Source of the DNA: Gammaproteobacteria bacterium
GTDB taxonomy: Bacteria > Pseudomonadota > Gammaproteobacteria > Eutrophobiales > Eutrophobiaceae
Length of the DNA: 27,319 bases
Reading direction: 5' to 3'
NCBI GenBank assembly: GCA_963582285.1
Contig: CAUZRI010000001.1
Span: forward strand, 1-27,319
Of this stretch, positions 2,851 to 27,319 are shown one piece after another. A model generated the notes under the pieces. That model was not told the DNA's origin and searched no databases. It saw nothing but the letters and a program-made list of their open reading frames with translations. Numbering within the stretch: the first letter of the stretch is position 1; each line of letters starts with the position of its first letter. The position numbers and the translations under genes are program-made.

Positions 2851-3972
2851 TTATTGGAAGTTATAGTTAAACTTTATGCCATAGGACGTGAAGGAGTTGT
2901 CCTGAAGATTTGCAGTAATAAACCCATCGGGTATTACCTGAAATTTCGGATGGTAGGCCGGACGGGCTTGCAGGATATTACGCACATAACCGGCTAGCTG
3001 CCAGCTGCCGTCCTGAGGGCCAAAACCTGCCGAAACATTTATATCACCACCTCTGTCGAAAAAGGTGGTAACAGAGGGATTACTACTCCTGCAGGTCCGA
3101 TAGTCATCGGTGATATGTGCCTTGACATTGACAAAGGCCATATACGAGTTCATGACTGGCATCTCGTAGTTTCCACCTAATACAAATTTGAACGAGGGTG
3201 AATCCTGCGGGGTTGTACCTTGACGGGAGACAGTTTGCGCTGCTCCTACGGATGTCGTCCCTGCAGAAAATTCTTCTGTATCTGCCATTCGACAGCCGCC
3301 AGTAAGAAAAAATTCCGGGGGAATATCCGCCAGGGGCGTCAGGGAAGCTACAATCCCCGGTTCTAATCTACCCAAAAATTGGTTAGCGCCGGCTATCTCT
3401 TCCGCCCTAAAGCTCGAGGGATTCGCAAGAATATTAAGAGAAGCGGCGGCCTGCTCGTTTGCGGAACAACCACTACCATCAAAATCCAGGAATTCCCCGT
3501 CCAGCAGCGATCCGGCAAGGTTCAGGGTCAGTCTCTCTGTCGCCGCGTAATCAAAACTGAATTCAACACCATCGACCCGTTGTTTGCCTGCATTGAGGCT
3601 GACCGAGTTCTGATCTTGTGGATTAAAAAGAGGTGCCGCACCCACTGTTTGCAGATCCTTAAAGTCGTTCCTGAAGATATCTATATCATAACGAAGACGT
3701 CTCTCCATAAGCGTGCCCTTGGCTCCCACTTCAAAGGCCGTGACAAATTCTGGCGCAAAAGCGAGTTCTTCGAAGGTGGTGGGAAGCCCACCCTGCCCGG
3801 TATCGGTAACAGGCCCCTTGAACGCCGTGACGTATTTACCGCAAAAGGTATGATTACCCTCCATGGAGTTCGGCGTAAAACTAAGAACAATCTGTTTGTC
3901 AAAATTATCTGCCTTTTGCGTTTCGATAAACGGTGCGGGCAGATACCAGCGAAAGTCATTTGCTGAATACAT
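2851..3972 (-). pseudogene. C-terminal fragment (~373 aa) of a TonB-dependent receptor; no signal peptide, TonB box or plug
   Basis: Aligns by eye to the last third of the receptor at 15093-17978 (DTGQ, EFVTAFEVGAKGTL, NAGKQRVDGVE, SYGIKFNYNFQ). An in-frame TAG sits immediately before the ATG, the upstream DNA is AT-rich non-coding, and there is no clear Shine-Dalgarno. Confidence 0.7.
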
Positions 3973-4210: not shown

Positions 4211-6118
4211 TTATACTTTTCGGGAACGTAGATCCGCCACAGAAAACTTCTGATACTGTGTGAGGCCTGCACCGGTACCCCAGGAGGCTGTACGGGCATC
4301 GATCATATACGGACGACCGTCTTTCAAGGTTCGGAATCCACGTTGAATCGCTGGTCGTACCTGATCACTGTTAGAGACGACCTCACCGGGAATATTATAA
4401 ACCGAGGCCAATTTGGCGAAGTCCATATCTGGATCACCCAGGAAGGAAACGTAATCACGATTCGCCTCGCCAGCAGCACCAGCGCCCATGATACGGAATC
4501 GCGTTGCCTCATAGCTGCGATTGTTCAATATTATTGTCAAGACCGGGACATCGTAACGCGACATGGACCAGAGTGAGTCAGACTGGCCAAACATAAATCC
4601 ACCATCTCCCTGTAAAGAAACCACCTGTCTGTCAGGCAGCGCCAATTTAGTTCCTACCGAGGCACCAACTCCCCAACCCAGGGCCATACCCGTGGTACGA
4701 CCTATTTTTAATCTACCCTCTGGACTAAAATTAATATGACTTACGGTCCTCTCTCCCCGACCCAGTTCTTCAACTACCACGGCATCGGGATCCATCAGTT
4801 CATCCAGTTCGTAGAGTAACTTTTGCCAGGGCAAAGGATCTCCCTTACTTAGACGCCCGGCTTCCCGGGTCCCTGCATGCTTGCCAGCGGAGTATGTTGA
4901 TATTTTTAGACGACGTTCCGCGGTTCGCCTTTTAAGTTGCGCAGGACTTGCCATACTTTTTATAGCTTCCACCAGGTCTTTTGCGATTAAATCAATATCT
5001 CCAAGCAAACCAACCGCGGTAGGGGCATTGCGACCAATTTTCTCCGGATCTACACTGGCATGGATTAACGGGATCCTGCGATTTTTCATAAAGGTCTCCA
5101 TGCCTTGCGTAGCCCGGGTACCAATACTGATACAGCAATCAATATCATGGGGATAAAACTGCATATAGCTTGGCAGGTTGAGCAAATAACCAATATGCAG
5201 CGGATGATAATTGGGAAAATCACAATGAAAGCTTCTGGAATGTTGCGCCACCGGTATCGCCAACAACTCTGCCAGCTCAACAACTGAAGGAATTGCATTA
5301 CATTGACTAATCTCAAAACCCACTTCCATCAATGGTGAATTTGATTCAAGTAGAAATTTTGCCGCCCTTTCAATCTCAACGGGGTCGGGTCTCAATTCCA
5401 TTGAAACATTTAGCGCCTCTTTGGAATAAACACTTGCTGTCACATCAGATGCATACAGGTGATTCCGTGGAACACGAATATGAGTAGGTCCTCCTGGCAT
5501 AATATTGGACAGTTTGTACGCCCTGCGTGTCCATTCAGCCATTCTATTTGATTCATGGACTACCCATTGCCATTTGGTATAAGGCTTGACCGCTTCTGTC
5601 CAATCATCGAGATCCTCATGGGTATCCGTGCCTTCATTTGTGGAACTGGCATGATCACTGATTACTACCAAGGGTGAGCGGTCCTTCATGGCGTTATACA
5701 TACTGGAACTTGCATTGGGTAAACCAACCCTGCTAAACATGCAAAATCCTGTTTTTCCTGATGCCTTAGCATAACCATCGGCGATAGATACTACGTGACC
5801 TTCATGGGTCGCCTGGATCAGGGTCAGTTTCCCGGGGCGTTCAACCAACGCATTACATATCGGTCCTAATCCGGAACCATTTGCAATAAATAAATATTTT
5901 GCATCCGTCTCGAGAATTTGCTCAAGCATTACTTCCGCACCGGTACCGGTTACTGAACGTGTGTAACCTTCGGGCATTTCAGACCCTGGAATAAAAGGTT
6001 CAACTGCTGCCAAAGCCGACCTTGCGGCAGTCACGCCATAACTGGCTGCTGCCATCCCTGCCAAAAAACCACGTCGTGATATTTTGGCGTTAATTAGTTC
6101 TTTTACTAGCTCGCGCAT
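4211..6118 (-). CDS. Thiamine-diphosphate-dependent enzyme (benzoylformate decarboxylase/acetolactate synthase-like fold) with a predicted Tat signal
   Basis: ATHEGHVVSIADGYA (catalytic Glu motif) and GDGGFMF...IILNNRSY (GDG-x-NN ThDP/Mg motif). N-terminus SRRGFL plus a hydrophobic stretch and ALA-A cleavage site. GGGGGA ribosome-binding site. Confidence 0.9.
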   Translation of the reverse strand: MRELVKELINAKISRRGFLAGMAAASYGVTAARSALAAVEPFIPGSEMPEGYTRSVTGTGAEVMLEQILETDAKYLFIANGSGLGPICNALVERPGKLTLIQATHEGHVVSIADGYAKASGKTGFCMFSRVGLPNASSSMYNAMKDRSPLVVISDHASSTNEGTDTHEDLDDWTEAVKPYTKWQWVVHESNRMAEWTRRAYKLSNIMPGGPTHIRVPRNHLYASDVTASVYSKEALNVSMELRPDPVEIERAAKFLLESNSPLMEVGFEISQCNAIPSVVELAELLAIPVAQHSRSFHCDFPNYHPLHIGYLLNLPSYMQFYPHDIDCCISIGTRATQGMETFMKNRRIPLIHASVDPEKIGRNAPTAVGLLGDIDLIAKDLVEAIKSMASPAQLKRRTAERRLKISTYSAGKHAGTREAGRLSKGDPLPWQKLLYELDELMDPDAVVVEELGRGERTVSHINFSPEGRLKIGRTTGMALGWGVGASVGTKLALPDRQVVSLQGDGGFMFGQSDSLWSMSRYDVPVLTIILNNRSYEATRFRIMGAGAAGEANRDYVSFLGDPDMDFAKLASVYNIPGEVVSNSDQVRPAIQRGFRTLKDGRPYMIDARTASWGTGAGLTQYQKFSVADLRSRKV

Positions 6119-6187
6119 GTCATCCCCCAGAATATTGTTATTGAACTACCGCTTGAGATAAGATTATTTCGGTTAAATTATTAAGCA

Positions 6188-6478
6188 TTAATTCTCGACT
6201 GCCATATTATTTACCAAGTATTTGCGTACGGTCTCAAGATCTTTTACATCAACTACAGCACCTCTTGCCAACATATCATAAAGCGCATTTTCCCATTGAC
6301 TGGCATTAAGACTAACCCTGGTTAAATGACCTAGTCCATGACATTGACTACAAGCGACAAATACAATATCTCTGCCCTCTCCTTCAGGAAACGCTTGTTG
6401 TGCATTTAATGAAAAAGGAAGAAATAGAGCGAACACTAAATATCCCGCAGTAACGTAAACCTTGACCTTATTTTTCAT
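6188..6478 (-). CDS. Small monohaem c-type cytochrome (SorB/SorU-like class I), secreted
   Basis: Signal peptide ending SLNA-Q; FPEGEG...CSQCH haem motif; W..ALYDM..RGA putative distal Met; YL..N tail. Ribosome-binding site nearly identical to that of the ThDP gene. Confidence 0.9.
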   Translation of the reverse strand: MKNKVKVYVTAGYLVFALFLPFSLNAQQAFPEGEGRDIVFVACSQCHGLGHLTRVSLNASQWENALYDMLARGAVVDVKDLETVRKYLVNNMAVEN

Positions 6479-6697
6479 TCATCCCCCAAAACAATGTATT
6501 TAACAGGTTCTTAGTGTATGCCTGAGAATAAATATCGCAATATATTTATTCATTGTTCCTTATCAGAATCTGATTTAATTTATTCTCGCATATTTAATTG
6601 TATATCTACTTGAAATTAGAGAGCTATTTATGCTTGTGTATTAAAGTATTTTTCTTATACTGGCTACTTATTATTCATAATTACAAACGGAAGATCT

Positions 6698-7503: not shown

Positions 7504-7588
7504 GTTTTTGATTTATTGAGATATTGAACCTACCCTCACTTCCGTATGTTCGAATTGTTATTACCTTCACAATTTTATGTATACATAA

Positions 7589-8055
7589 ATCTTGTTAATC
7601 CTGTCTATTTTATATTTTTCTTTTGGTTACTAGCTTTGCCAGTTTGTCGGATTATTAAAGCCCCGTCATTCTGGAAAGTCCATAGGACTTGTCCGGAATC
7701 CATGCTGATTTGAACAACGGCTGGATTCCCGCCTTCGCGGGAATGACGTACGAGAAATCTCCACCCCACACATATTCAATACATCCTGTTTATCTTGTAA
7801 ATCCTGTCTATTTTATATTTTTCTTTTGGATACTAGCTTTGCCAGTTTGGCGGATAATTAATGCCCCGTCATTCCAGAAAGTCCGTAGGACTTGTCCGTA
7901 ATCCACACTGGTTTGAACAACGGCTGGATTCCCGCCTGCGCGGGAATGACGTATGAGGGATATCCTCACCCCTCACATATTCAATACATCTTGTTAATAC
8001 TGTTAATCCTGTCTATTAATTGATTGGATACTGGTATTTACCCAGAGGCACAAGG
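7589..8055. repeat. ~204-bp tandem duplication of a composite REP-doublet unit (2 full copies plus the start of a third)
   Basis: AATCCTGTCTA anchors at 7597, 7800 and 8005 (periods 203 and 205). Each unit holds CCGTCATTC..AAGTCC-NNA-GGACTT..AATCCA, the linker TTTGAACAACGG, and TGGATTCCCGCCT(T/G)CGCGGGAATGACG. Confidence 0.9.
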
Positions 8056-25720: not shown

Positions 25721-27319
25721 TTAATTACGACTGGGGATATGCGGCGGTGTTTGCTGCCAACGCCACAGTGTTGTGGGAGTGCTTTTCTCAACCTCCCAGG
25801 CAGCAACATCCAGATTGGTATTAAACTTCAATTTATTACCTCGTAATTGAGTATCTTCAAAAACTAACTGTCCTCCTATCATGGTCATAACAGGGTATAG
25901 GCTATCCAATTCCTCAACATCCACTGCCATGTAATCACCATTAAGGATAATAATATCTGCCCACTTGCCCGGTTCAATAGAACCTATCTTGTCATCTTTC
26001 CATATGGAATATGCCCCCCAACGGGTCATCATTAATAATAATGTTAATCTATCTGGTACTGCTTCTTCCGGAACGCCAAAATTTTTCCCTTCTATCTTGC
26101 GCGTCATCCACATAACACCATCTTCAAAAGGTGAATGACGGATTTCGCTCTGACTACCGAACTCACTTATCATTGTTCTGGCGCCGGCCTTTAACATACT
26201 CGCTACTGGTGCATTAAAGGTCAGATACTCCTCACCATAATCTTCTTCCAGTACCTGACTGGGGACACGCGTGGCATCACAGGAAAATGCCATGTTAATG
26301 CGAGCCGCAATCTCGATTTCTTCCTGAGTCACAGAATGACAATGGTCTACCTGCAGGCGCAGAGTGCGTAATTTTTCTATTGGGATCCCTGCGTTTAATA
26401 CCGTATCCAGATAGGCCCGTATTGCCTTGTCCCCTGCCACATGCCAACCAGGAATGCCTGTTTGTCTGCCTTCTGCTGCTAGCTCAGCGAGTACCTGTAA
26501 ATGCTCCAGTTTCCGAGTAAAGAAATCCCCATCGGGACATAATTCGCGTGACTTTAGTTCTGCTGTCTTCGCAGGGAGTGAGGTACACCAGGCCACGCCA
26601 CCACCATCCAGGCCACCTGCACTACTACCGATACTCCACATATGATCCGATCCATACCCTACCCAATCACCAATTCGCCAGTAGGTTTCTTTTACCAGAG
26701 GATTGAACGGTTGCATCCAGCGATGACCCCAGGCAAGACGGATGGGCATCAACTTGTTTCTGTCCAGATGTATGGAGGCATTGAATCCGCCTTCACACTG
26801 TACATGTGTCTTATGGGTGGTCACACCGTTCTGAGCGTTGAGCTGCATTACCTGAAAATAAGCACGGGTATATTCATCCCGGCGATTGGACTTAGGTAGA
26901 ATAATATCGCTACGAACACATCTGGGTCCATCGGTGTAATCACCAGACCAACCGGTTTTTTCATCGGTCCAAAAATCATCTGGTATAGGATTGCGGTAAC
27001 GTGCCTCAATAGACTCAATGCCACGCGTGTTGTAGACGGCACCACCCCGGGTACTTACGACCACAGGATTATTAGTTGTTAGAGGATCAAGAAATTGTCT
27101 GGTTAATGTCTTGCCGATAGCCTGTACTGCTACCTGTGCGGGGTTTACCCGCACCTGTATCCATTGGCCATCGGGTATTTGTCTAACCCTTGCAACCAAT
27201 GCCTTGCCCAGATTATCAACCAGTACATCAGGCGTTTCCGCAGAGACAGACAATTGAATCAATTCTGGTATTGCCTTTAACACCCAGGGAAAGGATGTGA
27301 GTGTGGTTTCGTAAAGATG
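25721..27319 (-). CDS. Amidohydrolase family 3 (YtcJ-like) metallohydrolase, 5'-partial (runs off the window end)
   Basis: The frame is open to base 27319 (HLYETTLTSFPW-VLKAIP...). Motifs WHVAGDKA, VDHC, MTRWGAY, GSIEPGKWADIIIL and MTMIGGQLVF. Confidence 0.88.
   Translation of the reverse strand, partial: HLYETTLTSFPWVLKAIPELIQLSVSAETPDVLVDNLGKALVARVRQIPDGQWIQVRVNPAQVAVQAIGKTLTRQFLDPLTTNNPVVVSTRGGAVYNTRGIESIEARYRNPIPDDFWTDEKTGWSGDYTDGPRCVRSDIILPKSNRRDEYTRAYFQVMQLNAQNGVTTHKTHVQCEGGFNASIHLDRNKLMPIRLAWGHRWMQPFNPLVKETYWRIGDWVGYGSDHMWSIGSSAGGLDGGGVAWCTSLPAKTAELKSRELCPDGDFFTRKLEHLQVLAELAAEGRQTGIPGWHVAGDKAIRAYLDTVLNAGIPIEKLRTLRLQVDHCHSVTQEEIEIAARINMAFSCDATRVPSQVLEEDYGEEYLTFNAPVASMLKAGARTMISEFGSQSEIRHSPFEDGVMWMTRKIEGKNFGVPEEAVPDRLTLLLMMTRWGAYSIWKDDKIGSIEPGKWADIIILNGDYMAVDVEELDSLYPVMTMIGGQLVFEDTQLRGNKLKFNTNLDVAAWEVEKSTPTTLWRWQQTPPHIPSRN

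Follow-up and report, generated by a model that had tools for sequence, protein, structure and literature searches.

A candidate periplasmic thiamine diphosphate enzyme with a twin-arginine leader, encoded beside a SorB-like cytochrome c in uncultured bacteria

The gene pair and its sequence features

The stretch of DNA considered here, the window, comprises 27,319 nucleotides of contig CAUZRI010000001.1 from a marine gammaproteobacterial metagenome-assembled genome (MAG; assembly GCA_963582285.1). Its minus strand carries two adjoining genes, one encoding a small monohaem cytochrome c and the other a thiamine diphosphate (ThDP) enzyme preceded by a leader of the twin-arginine translocation (Tat) type. 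The features of this pair are as follows.

6188–6478, minus strand: cytochrome c gene, 96 amino acids, monohaem, of the SorB or quinohaemoprotein amine dehydrogenase type (direct reading)
4211–6118, minus strand: ThDP enzyme gene, 635 amino acids, three domains, Tat-leader clade (direct reading and Pfam)
6479–6488, minus strand: ribosome-binding-site-like 10-mer TGGGGGATGA, directly 5′ of the cytochrome ATG
6120–6129, minus strand: second copy of TGGGGGATGA, ahead of the start codon of the ThDP enzyme
6401–6478, minus strand: Sec-type signal peptide of the cytochrome, residues 1–26, with predicted cleavage between LNA and QQ
6338–6352, minus strand: haem c attachment motif CSQCH, C43 to H47
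6272–6274, minus strand: Met69, the likely sixth haem ligand, in the motif Y-D-M-x-x-R-G-A (invariant in the cytochrome alignment)
6008–6118, minus strand: twin-arginine signal peptide of the enzyme, residues 1–37, with predicted cleavage between ALA and AVEP
6062–6079, minus strand: twin-arginine motif SRRGFL
5801–5803, minus strand: Glu106, the cofactor-activating glutamate (aligned to Glu47 of benzoylformate decarboxylase; invariant in the clade alignment)
5312–5320, minus strand: middle-domain loop G267-F268-E269, which is G-x-G in relatives that bind flavin adenine dinucleotide (FAD) or ADP (alignment with Escherichia coli enzymes)
4520–4609, minus strand: ThDP/Mg-binding motif GDG-x24-NN, residues 504–533 (D505, G506, N532 and N533 invariant)

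The cytochrome gene is upstream of the enzyme gene on the same strand, with an intergenic gap of 69 bp, and direct reading of the open reading frames (ORFs) bears out the secreted-type CSQCH cytochrome that an earlier sequence-only reading of this DNA had placed there. The shared ribosome-binding site described in the same reading is in fact an identical 10-mer before both starts: TGGGGGATGA has exactly two copies in the 27.3 kb window, one before each of the two ATGs, whereas shuffled sequence contains a mean of 0.19 copies, and two matches are reached in 2 of 100 shuffles. A promoter-like site is present upstream of the cytochrome gene and no terminator-like site was found between the two genes, although both of these observations carry little weight.

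The N-terminus of the ThDP enzyme reads MRELVKELINAKISRRGFLAGMAAASYGVTAARSALA, followed across the predicted cleavage site by AVEP. It is built from a 13-residue n-region, the SRRGFL motif (consensus S-R-R-x-F-L), the mildly hydrophobic stretch AGMAAASYGVTAA (rich in Ala, Gly and Ser), the basic residue R33, and A-L-A at residues 35–37, followed by Ala. The leader thus has the sequence characteristics of Tat substrates, namely an S/T-R-R-x-F-L-K-type motif, a weakly hydrophobic h-region and an A-x-A site, and the motif, hydrophobic region and ALA-A site are where they had been described. The cytochrome begins with a Lys-rich segment that is followed by a hydrophobic core and the LNA and QQ residues of its putative cleavage site.

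Conservation of the leader and linkage of the two genes

The twin-arginine motif is retained in 117 of 120 homologues with identities of 56–96%, and the three homologues that lack it begin within the leader, apparently because their starts were mis-called. In an exhaustive search for distant homologues among 1.84 billion cluster representatives, about 25 further clusters (28–57% identity; 600–660 residues) align from residue 1 and have the arginine pair at the same place, whereas the alignment of ordinary cytoplasmic relatives of 540–570 residues begins at about residue 59 of the query. An N-terminal extension of about 55 residues is absent from the cytoplasmic relatives. R15, R16 and F18 are invariant across 28 divergent members of the clade, and the n-region MR.LV..L...IS is conserved as well. 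In a FastTree tree of 118 full-length rows, in which the leader was labelled by a strict pattern, all leader-bearing proteins (31 of the 118 rows) fall in a single branch with 100% local support. Of the six rows of this clade that the strict pattern left unlabelled, two do carry the arginine pair and one (P0144) starts inside the leader, which is likely a mis-called start; the remaining three (P0207, P0215 and P0248) are leaderless as called, yet nested in the Tat-leader clade.

The motif is thus kept in nearly all close homologues and through the clade to about 30% identity or below. A true start downstream of the arginine pair, which would have removed the motif from the protein, is contradicted by the region upstream of the pair, which shows coding conservation and comes with a ribosome-binding site of its own. 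These comparisons support the leader as a true Tat export signal, more than a chance resemblance, and export of the enzyme is predicted on that basis.

It is highly improbable, in our estimate, that the N-terminal segment is something other than a cleaved export signal, with the enzyme remaining in the cytoplasm, or tethered to the membrane by a leader that is not cut off, and with another purpose for the arginine pair. The n-region is unusually conserved for a signal peptide, AlphaFold2 (AF2) models residues 1–42 as helices (predicted local distance difference test score, pLDDT, 69–79), and no tat genes were found in the enzyme's own, incomplete MAG, all of which would suit such a segment. 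However, conserved n-regions are usual in the Tat leaders of cofactor enzymes such as TorA and DmsA, to which dedicated proof-reading chaperones bind. In addition, the full S-R-R-x-F-L motif is followed in the segment by an Ala/Gly/Ser stretch of low hydrophobicity and by A-x-A, and this protein also has a basic residue ahead of the cleavage site; the whole extension is missing from the cytoplasmic relatives; and the conserved partner of the enzyme is a Sec-exported cytochrome c, a protein that is functional only outside the cytoplasm.

One of the leaderless proteins, P0207 (573 amino acids), is encoded 36 bp downstream of a gene for a 724-amino-acid quinohaemoprotein dehydrogenase that combines a pyrroloquinoline quinone (PQQ) domain with a cytochrome c domain (L091:790–4722), in a locus that lies among acyl-CoA dehydrogenase genes. 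P0207 may represent a secondary return to the cytoplasm.

Linkage of the two genes was examined in 80 genome loci, all from MAGs, that encode relatives of the enzyme with 39–96% identity (located with the closer-homologue alignment). These loci belong to Gammaproteobacteria (including Woeseiaceae), Acidobacteriota, Binatia and a few other groups. Homologues of the cytochrome were sought by single-sequence phmmer with the cytochrome of the window as query. Of the 69 loci whose flanking sequence is long enough, 57 have a homologue directly beside the enzyme gene and on its strand, and the 80 loci are distributed as follows.

43 loci: cytochrome gene adjacent on the same strand, upstream
13 loci: cytochrome gene adjacent on the same strand, downstream
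1 locus (L072): cytochrome apparently in frame with the enzyme
6 loci: cytochrome homologue within 10 kb
6 loci: no cytochrome found, flanks long enough
11 loci: no cytochrome found, locus truncated

The side on which the cytochrome gene is located varies by lineage, and overlap of the stop codon of one gene with the start codon of the other is frequent. The 853-amino-acid cytochrome–enzyme ORF of L072 was considered as a gene fusion and rejected, as it reflects a one-base frame problem in the DNA; in the corrected frame, the stop codon of the cytochrome gene overlaps the ATG of the enzyme gene. When all ORFs of the 80 loci were clustered, no other neighbour approached the frequency of the cytochrome, and this includes any chaperone-like third gene. 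The next commonest neighbours are TonB-dependent outer-membrane proteins (23 + 14 loci), bicupins, Amidohydro_3 proteins and UbiD-type decarboxylases, and TonB-dependent outer-membrane importers occur in at least 37 of the 80 loci. No adjacent small cytochrome was found beside the leaderless clade members P0207 and P0248 or the outgroup protein P0168. The linkage anticipated from the window is accordingly conserved across phyla, and the leaderless relatives that were examined, four in all, are without it.

A second pair is present in the same MAG, on contig C46 (L085:1145–3387), where a CFRCH cytochrome gene is followed by the gene for a ThDP enzyme with an SRREF Tat leader; the stop codon of the former overlaps the ATG of the latter, and the enzyme is 34% identical to that of the window. 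Across 28 pairs, identities among the enzymes correlate with those among the cytochromes (Mantel r 0.80, a value reached in 0 of 2000 permutations). Stronger support comes from genomes that contain two pairs, in which each cytochrome is 75–96% identical to its orthologue in another genome but only 44–47% identical to the second cytochrome encoded alongside it in the same genome. The pairs have therefore been duplicated and have diverged as units. At three loci (L021:10001–13854, L022:10001–13857 and L062:9025–14948), two to three ThDP genes with Tat leaders stand in tandem, and a single cytochrome homologue was detected nearby.

Types of the enzyme and the cytochrome

The enzyme is intact, as had been proposed, with Pfam matches to TPP_enzyme_N (E 5e-20), TPP_enzyme_M (8e-17) and TPP_enzyme_C (5e-24), all above the gathering scores. 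It has the three domains, the activating glutamate and the GDG-x(24–27)-NN motif that characterise the ThDP superfamily: Glu106 aligns to Glu47 of benzoylformate decarboxylase (BFD), and D505, G506, N532 and N533 are invariant in the clade. The AF2 model (pLDDT 89; predicted template modelling score, pTM, 0.91) has at least 500 matches of the same fold in the PDB. The nearest structures, at about 20% identity, are those of the HKA synthase BbmA, BFD, 4-hydroxybenzoylformate decarboxylase, benzaldehyde lyase, glyoxylate carboligase and acetohydroxyacid synthase. All scores with the best family models, namely PRK08327 and those for BFD, acetolactate synthase (ALS), Xsc and pyruvate oxidase (POX), are far below the respective cut-offs; for example, the NCBIfam BFD model PRK07092 yields 203.9 bits (cut-off 493), and the NCBIfam pyruvate oxidase model yields 130 bits (cut-off 742).

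The sequence-only reading had framed the protein as a BFD/ALS/POX-family enzyme, and this framing holds at the level of the superfamily but requires refinement in two respects. Orthology with BFD is rejected, as His70 and His281 of BFD are replaced by Phe128 and Thr337, with no His nearby, and the family score is too low. A bound flavin is opposed by the middle-domain loop, which contacts the nucleotide in related structures. In an alignment of the clade with three FAD-binding enzymes of E. coli (PoxB, Gcl and IlvI) and one that binds ADP (Oxc), this loop is GSG in PoxB, GGG in Gcl, GGG in IlvI and GKG in Oxc, whereas it is GFE in the enzyme of the window and G-x-E/D in every clade member aligned; BFD has GPD. 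Most of the clade also has a shorter version of the segment that follows (GM.G..G in IlvI, Gcl and PoxB). Because the loop is G-x-E/D, not G-x-G, and the following segment is shorter, a bound flavin is judged rather unlikely. The enzyme thus departs from the FAD-dependent POX/ALS pattern both in its loop and in its family scores.

If a flavin were nevertheless present, the protein could be a pyruvate-oxidase-like flavoenzyme in which bound FAD relays electrons from ThDP to the cytochrome, as happens in the flavocytochrome c enzymes. All known oxidising members of the superfamily (POX, PoxB) use FAD, and the middle domain is present and well folded in the model. These points are outweighed by the BFD-like loop of all aligned clade members, by the shortened equivalent of the GM.G..G segment and by the gap between 130 and 742 bits in the pyruvate oxidase score, and we regard such a flavoenzyme as improbable.

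The cytochrome has the attributes of class I c-type cytochromes: a CxxCH site, a distal Met, a signal peptide and a small all-helical fold. C43, C46, H47, W62, M69, R72 and G73 are invariant in 29 homologues, all of which have an equivalent hydrophobic N-terminus ending in A/S-Q. No Pfam model is passed by the protein. A profile of the 29 homologues, compared with solved structures, matches the haem domain of quinohaemoprotein amine dehydrogenase (QHNDH; PDB 1jju; E 2.6e-6) and SorB (2blf_B; E 8e-5), the latter over the whole mature protein. With the AF2 model (pLDDT 88), the top Foldseek match is SorB (probability 1.0; root-mean-square deviation 1.6 Å over 64 columns; the shortness of the protein makes the E-value weak), with the amine dehydrogenase domain in second place and the p-cresol methylhydroxylase cytochrome subunit in fifth. 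The score with the NCBIfam SorB model, 16.8 bits against a cut-off of 93, marks the cytochrome as a distant relative of SorB and not an equivalog. By sequence profile and predicted fold, it is closest to the SorB and QHNDH haem-domain type, that is, to acceptors built into periplasmic dehydrogenases, rather than to free carriers.

The homologues vary in haem number and C-terminal architecture. Those of L052, L053, L055 and L080 were considered as candidate haem-less proteins and rejected, as they carry CGNSCH (a CX3CH site). In these loci (L053:11998–12507 and L080:11998–12510; also L052 and L055; some Terriglobia), the cytochrome is encoded downstream, has CGNSCH in place of CxxCH and bears a C-terminal extension. 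Related cytochromes of L058 and L071 have a C-terminal extension that matches helix-hairpin-helix (HHH_3) domains. In other Acidobacteriota (L022:9128–9931, L036:9071–9928 and L028:292–1146), the adjacent cytochrome ORF is of about 270–285 amino acids and contains three CxxCH motifs, by which the partner cytochrome can be multihaem.

A putative periplasmic ThDP dehydrogenase and its setting

The pair resembles SorAB, the sulfite:cytochrome c oxidoreductase of Starkeya novella (PDB 2blf), in which the gene for a cofactor subunit with a Tat leader adjoins that for a small Sec-exported monohaem cytochrome. SorA is the catalytic subunit, and SorB is the closest solved relative of the window's cytochrome by fold. 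The catalytic subunit of SorAB is a molybdoenzyme, whereas here its place would be taken by a ThDP enzyme, in a pair linked at the level of the genes. A dedicated cytochrome c subunit or domain is also found in the periplasmic flavocytochrome c dehydrogenases (PchCF, PDB 1diq; FccAB) and in QHNDH (1jju), but the catalytic cofactor of these enzymes is a flavin or a quinone, in no case ThDP. BFD and 4-hydroxybenzoylformate decarboxylase (1bfd, 7orx), benzaldehyde lyase and BbmA (8x3x) have the same three-domain ThDP fold (TM ~0.85 by target). This flavin-free BFD group shares with the window enzyme the activating Glu, GDG..NN and the acidic residue of the middle-domain loop, but identity is about 22%, and its known members are cytoplasmic and leaderless and have no cytochrome partner. 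PoxB, a pyruvate:quinone oxidoreductase with FAD and ThDP, belongs to the same superfamily, oxidises a ThDP intermediate and feeds the respiratory chain; it differs in its FAD, its location at the cytoplasmic face of the membrane, its GSG loop (GFE here) and an identity of 18%.

The sequence-only reading had proposed a ThDP enzyme located in the periplasm, with the cytochrome as its possible electron acceptor, and the conservation of the leader and the linkage of the genes across phyla make this the best-supported reading of the sequences. Slightly better than an even chance is given to the two genes being one operon for a two-subunit periplasmic ThDP dehydrogenase:cytochrome c, for which we infer export, complex formation and electron transfer. 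The ThDP enzyme, probably a dimer, would fold and take up ThDP/Mg in the cytoplasm before its export by Tat, and the small cytochrome c would be exported by Sec, receive its haem in the periplasm and dock on the enzyme as SorB does on SorA. From an imported 2-oxoacid, aldehyde or α-dicarbonyl/acyloin compound, which are the substrate candidates proposed here, the enzyme would form a ThDP-bound carbanion/enamine. This intermediate would be oxidised by the cytochrome in two one-electron steps, probably with no flavin, after which the acyl-ThDP would be hydrolysed to yield a carboxylic acid and the electrons would pass to the respiratory chain. Such ThDP-to-haem chemistry is plausible because ThDP enamines are oxidisable by outer-sphere acceptors such as ferricyanide. 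A prediction of the complex (mature enzyme, residues 38–635, with mature cytochrome, residues 27–96, and haem; one enzyme chain) gave a score of 0.01 and a mark of 0.32, and counts neither way. A further proposal, made tentatively and at somewhat less than even odds, is that the pair represents a new class of respiratory dehydrogenase, in which the haem of a dedicated SorB-like cytochrome c takes electrons directly from the carbanion/enamine of a flavin-free periplasmic ThDP enzyme.

Several points weigh against the proposed dehydrogenase. We know of no ThDP enzyme of the superfamily, and of no natural case, in which electrons are given directly to haem. The flavin-free argument rests on one loop and shorter neighbouring segments, with no ligand structure. 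In 6 of 69 loci, no cytochrome homologue occurs within 10 kb, and shared descent would by itself produce part of the correlation between enzyme and cytochrome identities. All the organisms that carry the family are represented by MAGs, and the family is known only as sequence. Neither tatC nor tatA was found in the window's own MAG (1.8 Mb; 286 contigs), although this absence is judged uninformative because the MAG is only 60% complete; tatC is present in all three tested genomes that carry orthologues.

The enzyme could instead be a periplasmic decarboxylase, lyase or carboligase that uses ThDP without oxidising its substrate, with the cytochrome accepting electrons from other periplasmic dehydrogenases of the same pathway, for example PQQ enzymes, or having a structural role. 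The nearest solved relatives (BFD, benzaldehyde lyase, HKA synthase and glyoxylate carboligase) are all non-oxidative, the enzyme lacks a flavin loop, and two PQQ dehydrogenases encoded in the window need a cytochrome acceptor. The cytochrome gene, however, tracks the ThDP gene rather than the PQQ genes: in Woeseiaceae, Acidobacteriota and Binatia there are loci without a nearby PQQ gene in which it still adjoins the ThDP gene. It is often translationally coupled to the enzyme gene and duplicates with it, and its product is of the SorB subunit type and not of the free carrier type. A non-oxidative enzyme is on these grounds considered unlikely, and oxidation through the cytochrome is the reading retained here.

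The rest of the window encodes a TonB-dependent receptor, two PQQ dehydrogenases, an exported and a cytoplasmic bicupin, an aromatic-ring hydroxylase and a class II aldolase/decarboxylase-like protein, and this gene order is kept in L001/L002 and in L005–L007; the L005 pair is 88% identical to that of the window. Such a context suggests, as a guess, an imported substrate that may be aromatic or another organic compound. The TonB-dependent receptor gene located downstream of the ThDP gene (2851–3972, minus strand) is truncated. Its 373 amino acids match only residues 655–1026 (95% identity) of the intact 1026-amino-acid orthologue in L004, a 96%-identical relative, and about 2 kb of 5′ coding sequence, corresponding to the plug and the first half of the barrel, is missing through deletion or assembly collapse. 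Two copies of a repeated element lie between the aldolase-like and hydroxylase genes (7546–7969), where they appear as near-identical short ORFs on both strands (e.g., ...NPVYFIFFFW.LALPV.RII.APSF...). A large Amidohydro_3 protein is encoded in the window (25721–27319) and in loci L003, L012–L014, L020–L022 and L027; often with a MoxR/DUF58/VWA set, it recurs within 10 kb of the pair in Woeseiaceae, Terriglobia and this window.

To our knowledge, all characterised ThDP enzymes of the POX/ALS/BFD-type superfamily work in the cytoplasm, and full-text literature searches, the coverage of which excludes most subscription journals, turned up no account of a ThDP enzyme that is periplasmic or exported by Tat. 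Periplasmic dehydrogenases that feed respiration have so far used molybdenum, flavin, PQQ or other quinone cofactors. If the enzyme is periplasmic, ThDP would be shown to leave the cell via Tat and to be used outside the cytoplasm; if it is paired with the cytochrome c, oxidation of a ThDP carbanion by haem would be a new cofactor chemistry for periplasmic respiratory dehydrogenases. Both genes are small and expressible, which opens the idea to direct test. Should the reading be true, C–C cleavage of imported 2-oxoacids, aldehydes and α-dicarbonyls, perhaps derived from lignin or humic aromatics, would feed the respiratory chain while the substrate stays outside the cell. The module has a wide distribution that takes in Acidobacteriota, Binatia and uncultured marine Gammaproteobacteria. 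The family is common in abundant uncultured bacteria of sediment, soil and sea, and as it also shares loci with TonB-dependent importers, it may be relevant to how dissolved organic or aromatic carbon is turned over.

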